A stretch of DNA of 64,000 nt, from NCBI GenBank assembly GCA_965218295.1, contig CBDCKN010000013.1:384001-448000 (forward strand), read 5' to 3'. The translations under genes and the position numbers were made by a program. Positions 21,993 through 64,000 of the stretch are shown here, one piece after another; the stretch's first letter is position 1, and each line of letters begins with the position of its first letter. Under the pieces are notes generated by a model that had not been told where the DNA came from, did not search any database, and saw only the letters and a program-made list of their open reading frames with translations. Source of the stretch: Longimicrobiales bacterium (lineage in GTDB: Bacteria; Gemmatimonadota; Gemmatimonadetes; Longimicrobiales; Gaopeijiaceae).

Positions 21993-22257
21993 GCTCAACC
22001 TTTCGCGAGCCCTGGTAAAGCTGGCGCTTCTGGTGGCAATCTCGCTGCCGCTCGCGCTCACTCTATTGGTTGCGGTTCCGCTCATTCAGTTCCTGCTTAG
22101 AGGCTTCAACGTCCACGGAACCTGTCAACGCCAGTGAGACACTCTTGGAAATCAATTAGAGAGCAATCTCCTGTGTAGTGAGGGATGGGGTGGGAGGATT
22201 GATCCAGACGGCCTCCGCGGAACCTGTCAACGCCAGTGAGACACTCTTGGAAATCAA

Positions 22258-23265
22258 TTAGAGAGCAATCTCCTGTGTAGTGAGGGATGGGGTGGGAGGA
22301 TTGATCCAGACGGCCTCCGGGAGTGGTTTAGGCTTCGGCTCACCGGAGACGAAGCGCTCGGGATGAGCGGCCCATGCCTCACGGAGCACGGCCTTCCTGC
22401 AGGCGATGATCCGATCGGCGTGACCGAAGTGGACCTGTTCGGGGGTCAGCATCGAGATGCCGCCATGGCGGTGCTCGGCATTATACCAACGGAAGAACGA
22501 GCGACAGAAGGTCTTGGCTTGCCCCTGATCCCCGAACCGGCCGGGAAACGAGGGATGGTACTTCAAGGTCTTGAACTGAGCCTCGGAGAACGGATTGTCA
22601 TCCGAGACCTGGGGTCGGCCCAACGAGCGGGTCACGCCGAGATCGGCGAGTAGTTGAGCCGTGCATTGGCTCGTCATCGGAGCCCCTCGATCGGAATGCA
22701 GGGTCAGGAGGTGGGGCTGGACGCCATGCTTCAAGCAACTCTGCTGGATCAGCCGGCTGGCCAGGGCAGAGTTCTCCCGATCCGCCACCATCCATCCCAC
22801 GACGTAGCGGCTGAAGATGTCCAGGATCACGTAGAGGTAGAAGTAACTCCACTTCTTCGGCCCCAGCAGCCGGGTGATATCCCAGGACCAGACCTGGTTC
22901 GGGCCCCTCGCCATCAACTCGGGCTTCTGGTATTTGGGATGACTCCGCTGCGCTCGACGCTCCTGAACCGGCACCTGGGAAGCCAGAACGCGATACATCG
23001 TACGCTCGCTGCACAGGTAGACGTCCTCGTCGAGCAGCGTCGCCACCACCTCGGCTGGGGACCGGTCCACGAACCGCTCCGAACACAGCGTGTCGAAGAC
23101 CTTGTCTCGTTCCTTCTCGCTTAAGGCCCGGGCGGGGGTCGGGCGGGGCTGCTGATGCCCGGTCGATGCACTCCGACGACGGTAGAACGTGGCTCGCGGC
23201 ACCCTGAGCGCATCGCACGCGGGCTTCACCCCTACGTGCTTGGCTAGCTCCTGGGTCGCCTTCAT
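22258..23265 (-). CDS. IS3 transposase OrfB (DDE)
   Basis: PNQVWSWDIT, LDIFSRYVVGW, HSDRG, DNPFSEAQFKTLK. Confidence 0.92.
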   Translation of the reverse strand: MKATQELAKHVGVKPACDALRVPRATFYRRRSASTGHQQPRPTPARALSEKERDKVFDTLCSERFVDRSPAEVVATLLDEDVYLCSERTMYRVLASQVPVQERRAQRSHPKYQKPELMARGPNQVWSWDITRLLGPKKWSYFYLYVILDIFSRYVVGWMVADRENSALASRLIQQSCLKHGVQPHLLTLHSDRGAPMTSQCTAQLLADLGVTRSLGRPQVSDDNPFSEAQFKTLKYHPSFPGRFGDQGQAKTFCRSFFRWYNAEHRHGGISMLTPEQVHFGHADRIIACRKAVLREAWAAHPERFVSGEPKPKPLPEAVWINPPTPSLTTQEIAL

Positions 23266-23711
23266 GAGTTCGTCCCGTCCTCGAGGCTCAATCCCAGCAG
23301 CCCTGCAACTTTTCCCTGGACGTCGATGATCAAGTGCGCCTTCTGGAGCTCCTTCTCGAGGCGAGTGTTCTCGCGCTCCAGCTTGCGCACCTTCTCCTCC
23401 AGCGGATTGCGCTCGCGCTTACGGCCTCGTTTCTTCGACAGCGCTTTCAGGGACCCGCTATGCGCCGCCTTGCGCCATGTCGTCAGGTGCGACGAGTACA
23501 AGCCCTCCCGCCGTAGGAGTCGGCCAACCTCTCCGGGCTCCGTGCACCGGTCCGCTTCTTCGACGATCCGCAGCTTGTACGACGGAGCGAACCGCCGGCG
23601 CAGCGGCCTATCTACCACCTCCGAGTCCGCAGGAGCTGCCGCGCTTCGCTTACCGTCCCAGGTTGGTGGGGCTATTCCATTCTCTTTCATTCTCTCTCGG
23701 TGTCTCAGCAT
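23262..23711 (-). CDS. IS3 transposase OrfA (HTH)
   Basis: RRRFAPSYKLRIVEEAD...LLRREGLYSSHLTTWR; ATGA overlap with orfB. Confidence 0.9.
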   Translation of the reverse strand: MLRHRERMKENGIAPPTWDGKRSAAAPADSEVVDRPLRRRFAPSYKLRIVEEADRCTEPGEVGRLLRREGLYSSHLTTWRKAAHSGSLKALSKKRGRKRERNPLEEKVRKLERENTRLEKELQKAHLIIDVQGKVAGLLGLSLEDGTNS

Positions 23712-23787
23712 CCTCGGTTTCTCTGCCTTCGCCCTACTCTAATTCCTTAGCTGCTCCGTGTCTCACGTAAGTTGGCAGAGAGGGCCG

Positions 23788-24733
23788 GGAGTGGTTTAGG
23801 CTTCGGCTCACCGGAGACGAAGCGCTCGGGATGAGCGGCCCATGCCTCACGGAGCACGGCCTTCCTGCAGGCGATGATCCGATCGGCGTGACCGAAGTGG
23901 ACCTGTTCGGGGGTCAGCATCGAGATGCCGCCATGGCGGTGCTCGGCATTATACCAACGGAAGAACGAGCGACAGAAGGTCTTGGCTTGCCCCTGATCCC
24001 CGAACCGGCCGGGAAACGAGGGATGGTACTTCAAGGTCTTGAACTGAGCCTCGGAGAACGGATTGTCATCCGAGACCTGGGGTCGGCCCAACGAGCGGGT
24101 CACGCCGAGATCGGCGAGTAGTTGAGCCGTGCATTGGCTCGTCATCGGAGCCCCTCGATCGGAATGCAGGGTCAGGAGGTGGGGCTGGACGCCATGCTTC
24201 AAGCAACTCTGCTGGATCAGCCGGCTGGCCAGGGCAGAGTTCTCCCGATCCGCCACCATCCATCCCACGACGTAGCGGCTGAAGATGTCCAGGATCACGT
24301 AGAGGTAGAAGTAACTCCACTTCTTCGGCCCCAGCAGCCGGGTGATATCCCAGGACCAGACCTGGTTCGGGCCCCTCACCATCAACTCGGGCTTCTGGTA
24401 TTTGGGATGACTCCGCTGCGCTCGACGCTCCTGAACCGGCACCTGGGAAGCCAGAACGCGATACATCGTACGCTCGCTGCACAGGTAGACGTCCTCGTCG
24501 AGCAGCGTCGCCACCACCTCGGCTGGGGACCGGTCCACGAACCGCTCCGAACACAGGGTGTCGAAAATCTTGTCCCGCTCCCTCTCACTTAAGGCCCGGG
24601 CGGGGGTCGGGCGGGGCTGCTGATGCCCGGTCGATGCACTCCGACGACGGTAGAACGTGGCTCGCGGCACCCTGAGCGCATCGCACGCGGGCTTCACCCC
24701 TACGTGCTTGGCTAGCTCCTGGGTCGCCTTCAT
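23788..24733 (-). pseudogene. IS3 OrfB of outer copy, C-terminus cut off by inner copy
   Basis: Near-identical to 22258-23265 up to KPKPLP. Confidence 0.88.
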
Positions 24734-25179
24734 GAGTTCGTCCCGTCCTCGAGGCTCAATCCCAGCAGCCCTGCAACTTTTCCCTGGACGTCGATGATCA
24801 AGTGCGCCTTCTGGAGCTCCTTCTCGAGGCGAGTGTTCTCGCGCTCCAGCTTGCGCACCTTCTCCTCCAGCGGATTGCGCTCGCGCTTACGGCCTCGTTT
24901 CTTCGACAGCGCTTTCAGGGACCCGCTATGCGCCGCCTTGCGCCATGTCGTCAGGTGCGACGAGTACAAGCCCTCCCGCCGTAGGAGTCGGCCAACCTCT
25001 CCGGGCTCCGTGCACCGGTCCGCTTCTTCGACGATCCGCAGCTTGTACGACGGAGCGAACCGCCGGCGCAGCGGCCTATCTACCACCTCCGAGTCCGCAG
25101 GAGCTGCCGCGCTTCGCTTACCGTCCCAGGTTGGTGGGGCTATTCCATTCTCTTTCATTCTCTCTCGGTGTCTCAGCAT
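24730..25179 (-). CDS. IS3 transposase OrfA
   Basis: Identical translation to 23262-23711. Confidence 0.9.
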   Translation of the reverse strand: MLRHRERMKENGIAPPTWDGKRSAAAPADSEVVDRPLRRRFAPSYKLRIVEEADRCTEPGEVGRLLRREGLYSSHLTTWRKAAHSGSLKALSKKRGRKRERNPLEEKVRKLERENTRLEKELQKAHLIIDVQGKVAGLLGLSLEDGTNS

Positions 25180-26467
25180 CCTCGGTTTCTCTGCCTTCGC
25201 CCTACTCTAATTCCTTAGCTGCTCCGTGTCTCACGTAAGTTGGCAGAGAGGGCCACGCCTCTCAGATAGCATCCGAAGCGGCCGACGTGGAGAAGCGCAT
25301 GCGCACCGAGGTGCTCGACTTGCTGGGGACGATCCCGTTGGTCAAGGGATTTTCCCAGGAGCAACGAGCTGCGGACTCATTTGCCGTTATCGCCGAAGAA
25401 GCGCGTGGGATCGAGGTGCGCCGGCACCGATTGTCACACTTGAAGAATCCGGTGGAGGAAGGGGTCATTCTGACCGCCGTCCTGATCGTCGAGGGCTTCC
25501 TTCTCTGGTGGGCCGATAGCTTCCAGCCCGGCGAACTCGTGCGCCTCGGAGCCTTCTTGCTCGTGGCCCAGCAGTCGATGCCCGACTATCTGGCCATCAG
25601 CAATTTCAGGCTCAAAATGTCGGAGCAGGTGCCGCTGCTCGATGCGTTGGCCGATCTGTATTCGGACGAGGGAAAGCACATCGTGCCCTCGGGCGACCGG
25701 TGCTTCGAGGGACTTCGGGAGGGGATAGACATCCGCGGCCTGAGCTTCTCCTATCAGCCTGCAATACAGGTGCTGCAGGACATCCACTGCTCGATTCCGT
25801 CCGGCTGCACGGTCGGGCTGGTAGGGGAGAGCGGAGCCGGAAAGACAACGCTGGCTCACTTGATCACCCGGTTCTACGACTGTCCTCCAGGGACGCTCTT
25901 CCTGGACGGCGTGGACATTCGAGAGTTCTCTCTGCCATCCCTACACGACAAGCTCTCGTTGGTGAGCCAGCAAGCCTTGCTCCTGAACCGTTCGATTCGA
26001 CTCAACCTCACTTTCGGGTTGGAGAGCAAGCCGGGGGAAGAGAGCCTGTTGCGCGCGCTGGACGACGTGGAGCTCGGCAATCTCGTCCGGCAGCTCCCCG
26101 ACGGAGTCGATACGCGAATCGGCGAGCGTGGAGTACAGCTCTCCGGAGGACAGAGACAGAGGCTCGCGTTGGCTCGTAGCCTGCTTCGCGACCCCGAGAT
26201 CCTGATTCTGGACGAGGCTACAGCTTCGCTCGACAGCCTGCTCGAGCAGAAGATCGAAGCGACCGTTGAACGTCGCTCCTCGGGGCGCACGCTCATCGTC
26301 ATCGCCCACCGTCTGTCCACTATCCGCAACGCTGACCAAATCCTCGTAATGAGCGCTGGGCGGATCGTCGAACGTGGGACTTGGGATGAGTTGGTGAGCA
26401 ACCGGGGGCACTTCGAGACACTGTACCGCGCCCAGTTCGAGCGTGAGTCTGCGGCCGCAGGCGCCCC

Positions 26468-56130: not shown

Positions 56131-56438
56131 CAGTCGACCCTAATCTCGACGTCCACGCCAGCAGGAAGATCGAGCTTCGTCAGCGCGTCGACCGTCTGCG
56201 GACGGCTCTCGACGATGTCGATGAGCCGCTTGTGCGTCCGAAGCTCGAACTGCTCGCGGCTCTTCTTGTCGATGTGGGGCGAGCGCAGCACCGTCCAGCG
56301 CTCACGCCGTGTGGGCAGCGGAATCGGTCCGCACACAATCGCGCCGGTCTTCTGCGCCGTCCGCACGATGTCGGCCGCGGTCTGATCCACGAGCCAGTGG
56401 TCGAACGCCTTGAGCCTGATTCGAATCCTGTCTGCCAT
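56130..56438 (-). CDS. rpsJ: 30S ribosomal protein S10
   Basis: [29 protein letters not shown]. Confidence 0.97.
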
Positions 56439-56510
56439 GTCTTCCTCTCACTGCGAGGCCGGTAGGGCCCCGCGGACTCTACTGCTGGCTGGTGTTGGGT
56501 CAGCCAGCGA

Positions 56511-56815
56511 AGGGAGAAGTTGCCTCCTCCGCTACACCGTAGGCCGGGACGCTGCGGAGGCAACTTCTCCCTCCGCTCCGACCGTCCCTGGCCATCCACC
56601 TGCTTTCGCGGGGCAAAACACCGGCCCCGCCCTTCGTTCCATCTAGCTTTCCTAGCTTCCCGCCAACGCCCCCAGTGAGCGCCCGCCTGGGCGTGTGCAC
56701 GGAGGCAGGCAGGCTGCCGGAGCCCCCGCCATGTGCGGAGGCTTGAGCCTTTTCTCTCTCCCGCAGCGTCCCGGCCTACGGTGTAGCGAAGGGAGAGAGA
56801 AAGACCTCAAGCCTC
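56511..56815. repeat. two long hairpins sharing a 28-nt loop in opposite orientation
   Basis: 56511-56572 (17-bp perfect stem) and 56738-56815 (10+12-bp stem); loops identical at 27/28 positions. Confidence 0.85.
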
Positions 56816-56818
56816 GCC

Positions 56819-58009
<1,191 letters not shown>

Positions 58010-60154: not shown

Positions 60155-60246
60155 CTATCTCTATTCCGTCTGTCTCTATTCCGTCCGTCTCGATTCCGTC
60201 TGTTGAATCGTCCTGGTCGACTTCCCTGGACGCCGCCCTGTCGGCG

Positions 60247-60352
60247 AAAAAAAGCGCACGAGCCACTTGAAGCAGGAAGCGCGTCCTTCCTTCTAGCTGC
60301 CGTAGCCTTTCACCGGCAGCCTCCGCGCTTCGTGCCTCGTCGCTCAGTGCGC
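60247..60352 (-). promoter_or_regulatory. ~100-nt rod-like hairpin followed by U7 in the rpsG-fusA spacer
   Basis: GCGCAC/GTGCGC, GAGC/GCTC, GAGGCA/TGCTTC, GAAGCGCG/CGCGCTTC, GCTGCCG/CGGCAGC, then TTTTTTT. Confidence 0.6.
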
Positions 60353-60416
60353 GAGACAACAGGTCGAGCCTTACCAGGCCTTTTTCAGCGGCAACTGGCG
60401 CTCGAGCGGATTTTGA

Positions 60417-60887
60417 CTACCAGCGATAGTGGGCGAACGCTTTGTTCGCCTCCACCATCCGGTGCGTGTCGTCCTTTTTCTTGATAGTCGCGCCCTCTCC
60501 CCGGCTCGCAGCCAGGAATTCGTACGCGAGTCGCTCGCCCATCGTCTTCTCCCCACGACTGCGGGCGAAGCTGATGAGCCAGCGGCTCGCAAGTGCGGCC
60601 CGACGCTCGGGCCGGACCTCGATGGGAACCTGGTACGTGGCACCACCGACGCGCCGGCTCTTCACCTCCAGAGCGGGCTTCGCGTTGGTGAGCGCCTGCG
60701 TGAAGATGTTCAGGCCTGGCTGGCCGGAGCTCTCCTCGCAGATCTCCAGAGCTCCGTAGAATATCTTCTCTGCCAGGGACTTCTTACCGTCGACCATGAG
60801 GTTGTTGATGAACTTCGTCACCTCGGCCGAATCATACTTCGGATCTGGGATGAGCTCCCGGCGGACCGCCCTGCTGCGACGACTCAT
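60417..60887 (-). CDS. rpsG: 30S ribosomal protein S7
   Basis: [26 protein letters not shown]. Confidence 0.97.
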
Positions 60888-61481: not shown

Positions 61482-62609
61482 CTACTTCCCTTTTTCTGCC
61501 GCCCGTACCATACCGGAGCTTGTTCCCCGCCCCCCCACTGGACGCAAGGATTTCTGACGGACCAGCGTCGGCACCTGTGTGATGAAGTACGCCGTTCGCG
61601 AGACACACTCCCACAGCTGAAACGGCAACCTGGGCAGTTCATTAAATGGCCCTCCGACGCCTACCGTAGCCTGAATCGGATTGGGCCAACGGAGGCGAAG
61701 TGCTCTTAGCAGCTGGGCCGGGTGCCGGAAGGAGTACGCCATCGACGGACTATCCAGATAATGCTCCCCTATCGACCACTGGCTGAGCACTGAGGGAAGG
61801 AGCCATCGCGGCAGGTGTCTAGCCCCCTCTGCTGTTGGAATGCCGTCCAGGCGGGCCCCGAGAAGCTGGCGTGCCAGACACACGGTGCATGCCACCCAAT
61901 CCGCGCGCCGCCGGTCTCCCCGCAGCAGATACTCCCAATCAAAATCCTTGGGCAGAGATTCCAGCACGACGGCGATGTCGCACAACCACAGGGGGCGGTA
62001 CGCCCCATGGCCTAACATGTGTATGCACATGTAGCGGAGATGATCTTCGGTTCCCAATATCCGCACGTCGACCTCGCCCAGTGGTACCAGCTGAGAACGC
62101 TCGTAGACATCATCCAGCGAAGGGCGGTGGAGCTGGGGCAGACCCTTGTGCAAATCGACTACGACCGTCTCGGCCGCCGGAGCGGCAAGTGCAGCCACCG
62201 CAACCGCATACTGTTCCGGCCGAACACACAGGTCGATGTCTCCATAAGGCCGCAGCCCGCGTTCGGGGTACAGTCGAGCGACTGCCCAGCCCTTGACCAG
62301 CAGCGGCTCCACACCCCTTGACCGAAGTAGCGTGATGGCCTGGACGATTTGGCGTTCCTGGCGGCCAGCCTGGAGAGTGTACAGGCGGTATGCCTGCCGA
62401 AGTTCGTGGGCAGCGGCGGAGGTGCGCAACTCGGACGACCGCACCCGCCACCACCCCAGGCTCGCCGCTCCCGTGCCGAGCAGCAGGGGTGTGACCTCGA
62501 TGAGGGCGGCGGGCGAGAGCGACGGGGGCGGGGGTGGGGGGAAAGCACGCCAGGCGCCAGCGAGGACCGATGCTACCAGCCTACCGCGTCGTCCCGGGTC
62601 GTTGCCCAT
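61482..62609 (-). CDS. uncharacterised nucleotidyltransferase (NTP_transf_5-like)
   Basis: LLVKGWAVARLYP..GLRPYGDIDLCV, VDLH, HMLGHG..RPLWLCDI..DW. Confidence 0.8.
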   Translation of the reverse strand: MGNDPGRRGRLVASVLAGAWRAFPPPPPPSLSPAALIEVTPLLLGTGAASLGWWRVRSSELRTSAAAHELRQAYRLYTLQAGRQERQIVQAITLLRSRGVEPLLVKGWAVARLYPERGLRPYGDIDLCVRPEQYAVAVAALAAPAAETVVVDLHKGLPQLHRPSLDDVYERSQLVPLGEVDVRILGTEDHLRYMCIHMLGHGAYRPLWLCDIAVVLESLPKDFDWEYLLRGDRRRADWVACTVCLARQLLGARLDGIPTAEGARHLPRWLLPSVLSQWSIGEHYLDSPSMAYSFRHPAQLLRALRLRWPNPIQATVGVGGPFNELPRLPFQLWECVSRTAYFITQVPTLVRQKSLRPVGGRGTSSGMVRAAEKGK

Positions 62610-62675
62610 TCCCGAACTGAAGTGATCCCAGCGGTCAAAGGGCAAAAGATACGCTCGACGTTCACCCGGTCGGGG

Positions 62676-62984
62676 TTAGGGACAACCACATATGCTTTTT
62701 GCCTGGCCTGCAGGTAAACACAAGCCGTTGCAACACAATTTGTTGCAATTAATTGCGCACGGAGTGCAATTTGGAATCCCCGAACAACTTGTAACGCACG
62801 ATGCTTGTGCCGCCGCAAGTGGCGCGACGATCGATTCGATCACCGGCAGAAGGAGCGAGATCCCTGCAACCCGTCGCAGGGTTCGTAGCACTTCCCGCCG
62901 CGAGTATTTGCCCCTTTCTGCCGGCAGTGTCACCGGCTCACTCAGCAAGTGTGCCCTGTCCAAGCGGTCCAGCGCCATCCACAC
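62676..62984 (-). pseudogene. 3' part of a putative PqqD/RRE-like + Tat-like leader + Cys-rich peptide gene, interrupted by IS3
   Basis: VWMALDRLDRAHLL; SRREVL; hydrophobic stretch; AQA; 41-aa tail with 10 Cys; the first 9 aa of the listed ORF come from the IS end. Confidence 0.7.
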
Positions 62985-63057
62985 CCCTCTCTGCCAACTT
63001 ACGTGAGACACGGAGCAGCTAAGGAATTAGAGTAGGGCGAAGGCAGAGAAACCGAGG

Positions 63058-63507
63058 ATGCTGAGACACCGAGAGAGAATGAAAGAGAATGGAATAGCCC
63101 CACCAACCTGGGACGGTAAGCGAAGCGCGGCAGCTCCTGCGGACTCGGAGGTGGTAGATAGGCCGCTGCGCCGGCGGTTCGCTCCGTCGTACAAGCTGCG
63201 GATCGTCGAAGAAGCGGACCGGTGCACGGAGCCCGGAGAGGTTGGCCGACTCCTACGGCGGGAGGGCTTGTACTCGTCGCACCTGACGACATGGCGCAAG
63301 GCGGCGCATAGCGGGTCCCTGAAAGCGCTGTCGAAGAAACGAGGCCGTAAGCGCGAGCGCAATCCGCTGGAGGAGAAGGTGCGCAAGCTGGAGCGCGAGA
63401 ACACTCGCCTCGAGAAGGAGCTCCAGAAGGCGCACTTGATCATCGACGTCCAGGGAAAAGTTGCAGGGCTGCTGGGATTGAGCCTCGAGGACGGGACGAA
63501 CTCATGA
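63058..63507 (+). CDS. IS3 transposase OrfA
   Basis: Identical to other copies. Confidence 0.9.
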   Translation: MLRHRERMKENGIAPPTWDGKRSAAAPADSEVVDRPLRRRFAPSYKLRIVEEADRCTEPGEVGRLLRREGLYSSHLTTWRKAAHSGSLKALSKKRGRKRERNPLEEKVRKLERENTRLEKELQKAHLIIDVQGKVAGLLGLSLEDGTNS

Positions 63508-64000
63508 AGGCGACCCAGGAGCTAGCCAAGCACGTAGGGGTGAAGCCCGCGTGCGATGCGCTCAGGGTGCCGCGAGCCACGTTCTACCGTCGTCGGAGTG
63601 CATCGACCGGGCATCAGCAGCCCCGCCCGACCCCCGCCCGGGCCTTAAGCGAGAAGGAACGAGACAAGGTCTTCGACACGCTGTGTTCGGAGCGGTTCGT
63701 GGACCGGTCCCCAGCCGAGGTGGTGGCGACGCTGCTCGACGAGGACGTCTACCTGTGCAGCGAGCGTACGATGTATCGCGTTCTGGCTTCCCAGGTGCCG
63801 GTTCAGGAGCGTCGAGCGCAGCGGAGTCATCCCAAATACCAGAAGCCCGAGTTGATGGCGAGGGGCCCGAACCAGGTCTGGTCCTGGGATATCACCCGGC
63901 TGCTGGGGCCGAAGAAGTGGAGTTACTTCTACCTCTACGTGATCCTGGACATCTTCAGCCGCTACGTCGTGGGATGGATGGTGGCGGATCGGGAGAACTC
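63504..64000 (+). CDS. IS3 transposase OrfB, partial
   Basis: MKATQELAKHVG... to window end. Confidence 0.9.
   Translation, partial: MKATQELAKHVGVKPACDALRVPRATFYRRRSASTGHQQPRPTPARALSEKERDKVFDTLCSERFVDRSPAEVVATLLDEDVYLCSERTMYRVLASQVPVQERRAQRSHPKYQKPELMARGPNQVWSWDITRLLGPKKWSYFYLYVILDIFSRYVVGWMVADREN

Follow-up and report, generated by a model that had tools for sequence, protein, structure and literature searches.

A split cassette for a predicted twin-arginine-exported RRE fusion precursor, an HprK-type kinase and a PF14907 transferase in a Longimicrobiales genome

The cassette between rpoC and rpsL

The window, i.e., the whole 64,000-nucleotide stretch of DNA that was analysed, ends within a cassette of three genes on the minus strand, bounded by rpoC and rpsL. 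The features are listed below; positions above 64,000 extend the window numbering into the contig.

61482–62609, minus strand: PF14907 (NTP_transf_5) nucleotidyltransferase-family gene, 375 aa from the ATG; matches the PF14907 profile, with conserved residues intact
62676–62984, minus strand: 3' piece of the precursor gene, residues 75–176; last RRE helix, linker, leader and Cys-rich tail
62679–62807, minus strand: predicted mature core, Gln134–Pro176, 43 aa with 10 Cys
62799–62801, minus strand: Ser136 (Pro121 + 15), predicted phosphorylation site; spacing from PMC13381572
62808–62855, minus strand: leader residues 118–133, LxxP(121)xI; likely RRE-recognition motif, whose Ala-Ala-Ala end is a predicted signal-peptidase site
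62886–62903, minus strand: SRREVL, residues 102–107; matches the Tat consensus Z-R-R-X-phi-phi
62982–62984, plus strand: CAC, left copy of the 3-bp target duplication
62985–64000, plus strand: IS3-like element within the window; orfA 63058–63507, orfB from 63504; 551 bases more past the window end (to G000:C13:448551)
64552–64776 (G000:C13:448552-448776, past the window end), minus strand: 5' piece of the precursor gene, PqqD/RRE domain
64872–65714 (G000:C13:448872-449714, past the window end), minus strand: HprK-type kinase gene, 280 aa, a P-loop protein

Kinase and precursor genes are separated by 95 bp, and the precursor stop lies 66 bp from the transferase ATG (62609). The earlier note had described a co-oriented NTP_transf_5-like gene at this distance, and its product does match PF14907, with 102.7 bits against a cut-off of 31.2. 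A search for a sigma-70-like promoter found none. A terminator-like hairpin lies after rpoC, beyond the window, although three such sites were found versus 3.8 expected by chance. Intact orthologues occupy the same genomic place in three relatives (G001, G002 and G011), and the closest named relatives of the precursor come from Longimicrobiales and other Gemmatimonadota. In G002 (L017:5588-8395), a genome of the same genus, the kinase is separated from the precursor by an IS1595-family transposase, and the transferase reading frame is broken in two. This cassette may thus have been hit independently there, or the frameshift may be a sequencing error. Unusually long spacers occur elsewhere in the str/S10 region, at 60155–60417 (rpsG-fusA, with a short repeated motif directly 5' of fusA) and at 56438–56819 (tuf-rpsJ).

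The precursor gene is split by an IS3-like element of 1,567 bp (62985–64551) with CAC on either side. This is as predicted from the window alone, where the 5' part had been thought displaced by an insertion ending near 64551 with a CAC duplication. The element carries orfA, with an HTH_Tnp_1 domain, and an overlapping orfB with an rve domain; the first nine codons of the listed open reading frame 62676–63011 come from it. In the IS3 family, inverted repeats TG..CA are expected at the element's tips. Here they start 7 bases inside each end, and for this reason we call the element IS3-like. A literature search on these ends turned up no relevant paper. The 3.57-Mb genome holds 38 full-length copies (55 left and 53 right ends), 21 of which have a 3-bp target duplication (3–4 bp in the IS3 family). 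Most of the 38 are near-identical, and the insertion is therefore probably recent. Copies are often nested in themselves, and the element also occurs at 22217–25252 of the window.

Rejoined across the element, the two precursor pieces are in frame and without a stop over 176 codons. Public contigs that lack exactly 1,570 bases at this site, i.e., the element and a single CAC, exist in runs X1 and X3 (two of four) and X18 and X19 (two of four); the join comes from two studies after X1 is left out as a possible source. An assembly artefact was rejected on the basis of this join and of the intact orthologues. In RNA runs X17 and X20 the precursor had thin coverage with divergent contigs, and X18 and X19 may be DNA. 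A search for a second copy of the three genes elsewhere in the genome (90.7% complete) found none. Because of the insertion this copy is likely inactive, and its product is probably not made.

Domains and conservation of the precursor

The read-through precursor consists, in order, of a PqqD/RRE domain, a twin-arginine motif, a hydrophobic leader and a tail with ten cysteines. Residues 25–72, in the 5' piece, match PF05402 (PqqD) with 34.5 bits (cut-off 23.4). An AlphaFold model of the intact homologue P0039, which is 90% identical to the read-through, was built with a 150-row alignment and had a mean pLDDT of 87.1. It contains three strands followed by three helices, i.e., the RRE-type order, together with a helix at 103–111 and a leader strand at 123–126. 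When the model was searched with Foldseek, the six best matches were chains of lasso B1-leader complexes, at E values of 0.005–0.12 (none at E≤0.001) and probabilities of 0.97–1.00. Going by the PF05402 match and this model, the N-terminal part is an RRE domain, as the earlier note had expected of the rejoined protein. A PDB sequence search with the precursor profile reached PqqD at E 0.011, and the ESM Atlas gave only clusters named PqqD or hypothetical. The PQQ-type PqqD profile TIGR03859 scored 21.7 bits versus a cut-off of 46, and pqq genes are absent from the cassette. An RRE would bind its leader between strand 3 and helix 3. Covariation among 352 sequences (effective number 211) was weak and placed the pairs R36-S125, M77-L120, D80-I123 and N39-P121 at ranks 8, 16, 29 and 42. 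The antiparallel registers 159 and 161 had mean z values of 1.0 and 0.9, to be read beside 0.98 for register 151 and only 0.77 for the positive control, with a shuffle that ignores kinship.

The SRREVL motif, hydrophobic stretch and 10-Cys tail reported previously are all present in the minus-strand frame 62676–62984. Among 150 diverse family members (the best 150 of 1,034), Arg103 is invariant and Arg104 is kept in 98%. The pattern Z-R-R-X-phi-phi (PMC13673990) occurs in 139 of these 150 aligned precursors, versus 4.5 in shuffles, with Phe at the usual Tat position in only 2 of the 139 fused motifs. In the window's precursor, the h-region after the RR motif has a 15-residue hydropathy of 2.15. 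Beyond the RR the leader has the consensus L-P-x-V/I-x-S-I-x-A-P followed by an Ala-rich stretch. The genome encodes TatC and two signal peptidase I proteins (S26), both of the latter outside the cassette. Using the signal-peptidase -1/-3 rule, a compatible cut was predicted after Pro+12 in 116/120 and after Pro+14 in 107/120 close homologues (the best 120 of 706); of the 139 distant representatives, 122 allow one after Pro+13. The window's precursor may be cleaved after Ala133 rather than after Ala135.

The 41 C-terminal residues contain ten cysteines (binomial p of about 8e-12 for a background Cys frequency of 1%). An even number of Cys is seen in 118/120 close homologues, in 131 of the 134 representatives with non-zero Cys (139 anchored of 150, minus five without Cys) and in 81/81 (of 84), although kinship inflates these counts. 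In the 120 close homologues, mean identity to the read-through is 0.87 for the RRE, 0.90 for the leader and 0.37 for the non-Cys core. DsbA-like proteins are present in this genome and in G001, G002 and G011; DsbB and VKOR were sought in the same four genomes (90–95% complete) and were detected in none. G001 carries two tandem cassettes whose cores differ (L018:7312-14394), and G011 three tandem precursors (L019:7132-12319). Both loci also encode a 383-aa Cys-motif protein, whose family weakly matches flagellin lysine methylase (FliB).

The Cys-rich tail is not universal in the family. Fused precursors with other cargo occur at L097:7086-7763, L094:6568-6975, L093:5534-6481 and L096:5500-6462; the types include a Lys-Pro-Pro repeat, a tail with a single residue beyond the Ser, and a Pro linker followed by a domain of ~120 aa.

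A feature kept across different cores is a Ser or Thr 15 residues after the leader Pro, i.e., Pro121 to Ser136 in the read-through precursor. It is present in 120/120 close homologues (the best 120 of 706) and in 129/139 anchored representatives, when offsets of 12–14 and 16–20 give 5–31. Four scored divergent fusions have it as well, two of them without Cys and one with Lys-Pro-Pro repeat cargo. Where a locus has both kinase and transferase, all 30 anchored precursors (of 32) carry the residue, as Thr in six. It was also found in 27/32 anchored precursors (of 33) whose fetched DNA lacks both enzymes, and because it is kept there it is not specific to kinase loci. Small residues are common just past signal-peptidase sites. 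In LPP (linear polyphosphorylated) peptides, according to passages of PMC13381572, the leader has Tyr-16, Pro-13 and Val-11, the core starts Ala-Gln-Ser3, and Ser3, the sole phosphorylated residue, stands 15 residues after Pro-13; the kinase LppK did not accept Thr.

Partner enzymes, distribution and unfused relatives

Across 31 aligned kinase sequences, His113 (90% or more), the Walker A motif and a Ser-Asp-Glu motif are kept, and a model of the kinase (pLDDT 88.8) has PEPCK and HPr kinase structures as matches. That the cassette's enzyme is the housekeeping HPr kinase was rejected because a canonical one is encoded on another contig. In the transferase, the Lys-Gly, Asp-x-Asp and downstream His are invariant across 34 sequences, and KG, DxD and DLH are intact in this copy. 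PDB sequence searches found nothing for the kinase alone, the transferase alone or the transferase profile, and three chance-level matches for the kinase profile.

A search with the intact homologue yielded 706 proteins, and a 33-row profile matched, at E≤1e-30, 1,034 representative proteins, each standing for a cluster at 50% identity. A pattern scan of GTDB genomes gave 60 loci: 33 in Acidobacteriota, 21 in Gemmatimonadota, three in Methylomirabilota/Rokubacteriota and one each in a delta proteobacterium, a Gemmataceae member and an unclassified genome. The kinase cluster was found in 32 of these and the transferase cluster in 31, so that the co-occurrence of homologues with the transferase, on which the earlier proposal depended, is seen in about half of them. 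The kinase is directly upstream in 29/60, the transferase directly downstream in 27/60, and both in 21/60; many of the loci end at contig edges, and the counts were derived from BLAST clusters and HMMs.

The precursor profile matched 12 of 201 genomes of the order, covering RRE plus leader in nine and the RRE only in three. The kinase subfamily profile matched the same nine genomes as the fused precursor, and the two genes are adjacent in eight. The close transferase subfamily (E<1e-80) occurs in three of the nine, with weaker matches in 25 other genomes, and seven of the nine have a PF14907-like gene of some kind no more than about 3 kb away. Some of these matches arise by construction, as the window and its relatives, possibly among the 201, contributed rows to the profiles, and related genomes are not independent. 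The kinase is a tighter partner of the precursor than the transferase.

Inspection of 171 hand-picked neighbour ORFs (71 + 100, the 100 mostly from 215 candidates) found no signal peptidase, lasso cyclase or B2 protease among them. One was a radical SAM protein (L059, about 1.8 kb upstream of the kinase), of a cluster found in 2/60 loci. An ABC exporter is present in 4/60 loci, all four from Pyrinomonadaceae, and Wzz/BY-kinase genes in 7/60.

The family also has an unfused form, in which a discrete RRE and a kinase accompany a separate short precursor, mostly with an N-terminal RRxF and a Y/W/F-x-x-P. A leader-only profile, built solely from fused proteins and giving 0 hits in reversed ORFs, found such precursors beside discrete RREs at five loci and at 10 of 12 further discrete-RRE loci; the two misses were near contig ends, and a thirteenth locus was fused. 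A kinase is nearby in 11 of the 12, and PF14907 sometimes. In five unfused precursors that were checked, the RR is 3–9 codons from the start codon. Their cores are mostly Gly/Pro-rich, many ending in repeated Pro-Trp motifs, and the Ser offset varies. A Y/W/F three residues before the leader Pro is, in passages of PMC12710340, the recognition motif of PqqD/B1-type RREs. The unfused form is the best evidence that the internal segment of the fused precursors may serve at once as Tat-type signal and as RRE leader. Unfused loci include L101:5122-7912, L026:4480-8436, L024:5208-7990, L028, L012, L123-L128, L130, L131, L133 and L134.

Known systems and a proposed pathway

Statements on published systems here rest on passages of the papers cited. 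LPP clusters of Bacillota (Popov et al. 2026; PMC13381572) comprise a discrete RRE, an HprK kinase, an NTP transferase, a SpI-like peptidase and an ABC pump. The cassette shares with them an RRE, an HprK-like kinase and an uncharacterized NTP transferase (here assigned by family, PF14907), with no lasso cyclase. Also shared are a conserved leader (x-x-P-x-V in LPP) before a variable core with Ser at leader Pro + 15, signal-peptidase-type cleavage (predicted here) and, at some loci, nearby polysaccharide genes. Compared with the LPP motif YxxPxV, the cassette keeps the Pro, the x-V/I and the Ser spacing, but Leu replaces Tyr. However, the cassette's RRE is fused to leader and core, whereas that of LPP is discrete; its precursor has a twin-arginine motif, an h-region and a Cys-rich core; no SpI-like peptidase or MsbA-like exporter lies between rpoC and rpsL; and the family occurs in Gemmatimonadota, Acidobacteriota and other phyla. 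The main text of PMC13381572 contains none of the words Tat, twin-arginine, disulfide, Gemmatimonad and Acidobacter.

With the phosphorylated lasso peptides paeninodin (PadeK) and pseudomycoidin (PsmK/PsmN; PMC6993621, PMC8498205) the cassette shares a B1-type RRE fold, an HprK-like kinase and an NTP transferase with DxD, but it has neither a cyclase nor a B2 protease, and its predicted target Ser is near the core start rather than C-terminal. A lasso, PQQ or radical SAM cluster was rejected: cyclase, B2 protease and pqq genes are absent from the cassette, and radical SAM genes are as rare as stated above. HPr-rel-A systems (TIGR04352, TIGR04353) likewise pair an HprK-related kinase with a PqqD-family protein. 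However, although TIGR04352 is the best NCBIfam match of our kinase, it scores 56.2 bits versus a cut-off of 200, and the window's RRE piece has no match to TIGR04353. In class V Tat substrates (FecR), too, the RR signal is internal and follows a folded cytoplasmic domain, and signal-binding REMP chaperones offer a parallel for the proposed binding of the signal peptide (PMC13673990); the cassette differs from both in that its signal looks cleavable and its chaperone would be a cis-fused RRE. The system would work in the manner of LPP but belongs to none of the LPP, lasso and HPr-rel-A classes. A full-text search of the literature, mostly of papers outside subscription, found no description of an RRE-Tat-core fusion. 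Nor does such a fusion appear in passages of the RRE-Finder paper (PMC7470986) and its 2025 update (PMC12710340); according to the latter, 21% of PF05402 proteins exceed discrete-RRE length without another domain.

We favour (with a probability of roughly 0.6) an LPP-like phospho(glyco)peptide system with a cis-fused RRE, in which the tasks of a dedicated exporter and peptidase would fall to housekeeping Tat and signal peptidase. The RRE would bind its own leader (LxxPxI) in cis and thereby mask the export signal, while the kinase would (poly)phosphorylate Ser136. The transferase might then help to add a hexose to the Ser136 phosphate. In pseudomycoidin the kinase phosphorylates a Ser, and the DxD of PsmN is needed for a hexose on the phosphate (PMC6993621; PMC8498205); in the LPP study, LppN gave no detectable product (PMC13381572). 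Of the earlier suggestion that the peptide is nucleotidylated or glycosylated, phospho-glycosylation following Ser phosphorylation appears likely by analogy with LPP and pseudomycoidin, but direct nucleotidylation does not. The twin-arginine leader would take the core through Tat, which does accept an internal signal behind a folded domain in class V substrates, where it is not cleaved (PMC13673990). The RRE would remain inside, housekeeping signal peptidase I would cut the Ala-rich site, and the paired cysteines would form disulfides. The hypervariable, tandem cores suggest a role in competition, signalling, or host or surface interaction.

Other readings of the fusion have to be weighed against this one. 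It could be an uncleaved, membrane-anchored, FecR-like class V Tat substrate, with the RRE cytoplasmic, the Cys-rich tail a periplasmic sensor or adhesin, and the kinase and transferase regulating or decorating it. The topology fits that of class V substrates (PMC13673990), some fusions bear longer domains or Pro-rich tails, and polysaccharide (Wzz/BY-kinase) genes accompany seven loci. We nevertheless consider it unlikely, given the conserved Pro-x-Ala-rich SPase-compatible site (116/120 at Pro+12, 122/139 at Pro+13), the unfused precursors that have no cytoplasmic domain at all, and the fusion that stops one residue past its Ser. A different view would retain export and disulfides but leave the mini-protein unphosphorylated, with the two enzymes acting on a sugar or envelope polymer or some other substrate. 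It would account for the 33 precursors from loci where neither enzyme lies on the fetched DNA, some beside other tailoring genes (methyltransferase, 2OG oxygenase, GT41), and PF14907 is also known from a phosphonate cluster (10.1101/2021.04.07.438883). However, the kinase subfamily and the fused precursor occur in the same 9/201 genomes, the same enzyme pair modifies peptides in the lasso and LPP pathways, and the Pro+15 spacing is that of the phosphorylated Ser of LPP, all of which make this account improbable.

The twin-arginine helix might also merely be RRE-leader packing, the core being cytoplasmic or leaving by another route and its cysteines binding metal. This would fit the helix at 103–111 in the model, the failure to find DsbB or VKOR in four genomes, and an Fe-S-like FliB-related protein (a weak NF038110 match) in 3/60 loci. 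It is hard to reconcile with the conservation of Arg103 and Arg104, with unfused precursors that place RRxF a few residues from the start, and with Cys counts that are near-universally even while their spacing varies, and we judge it very unlikely.

If the phosphopeptide reading is correct, more than 1,000 50%-identity clusters that now go by the name 'PqqD family protein', from Gemmatimonadota, Acidobacteriota and further groups that are mostly uncultured, would be precursors of secreted, modified mini-proteins. RiPP leader recognition would be linked to Tat export, and the Tat signal, internal yet cleavable and placed after a folded domain, would be of a class absent from passages of the 2026 Tat review. 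More speculatively, and with the odds against it, an RRE and an HprK-type kinase, with or without the PF14907 transferase, might form a general Tat-coupled modification pathway. A single leader would be recognized by the RRE, direct export and mark the peptide for phospho-glycosylation. The RRE would proofread the export of its own cargo, which could be almost anything (disulfide knots, Lys-Pro-Pro repeats or folded domains), and the fused and unfused forms would together make up a single undescribed class, with two branches, in uncultured phyla. With its named Ser, the set of three genes offers a simple test bed for PF14907 chemistry, this copy being a disrupted example.

Further proteins adjoin the precursors elsewhere in the family. 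An unannotated protein of 410–450 aa lies next to Cys-rich precursors at 8/60 loci (L051, L055, L056, L058, L060, L072, L073 and L081); one member was scanned and had no Pfam or NCBIfam match. Its H-Q-H motif is reminiscent of cysteine dioxygenase cupins. Other loci contain arginine-methyltransferase-like, 2OG oxygenase and GT41 genes.
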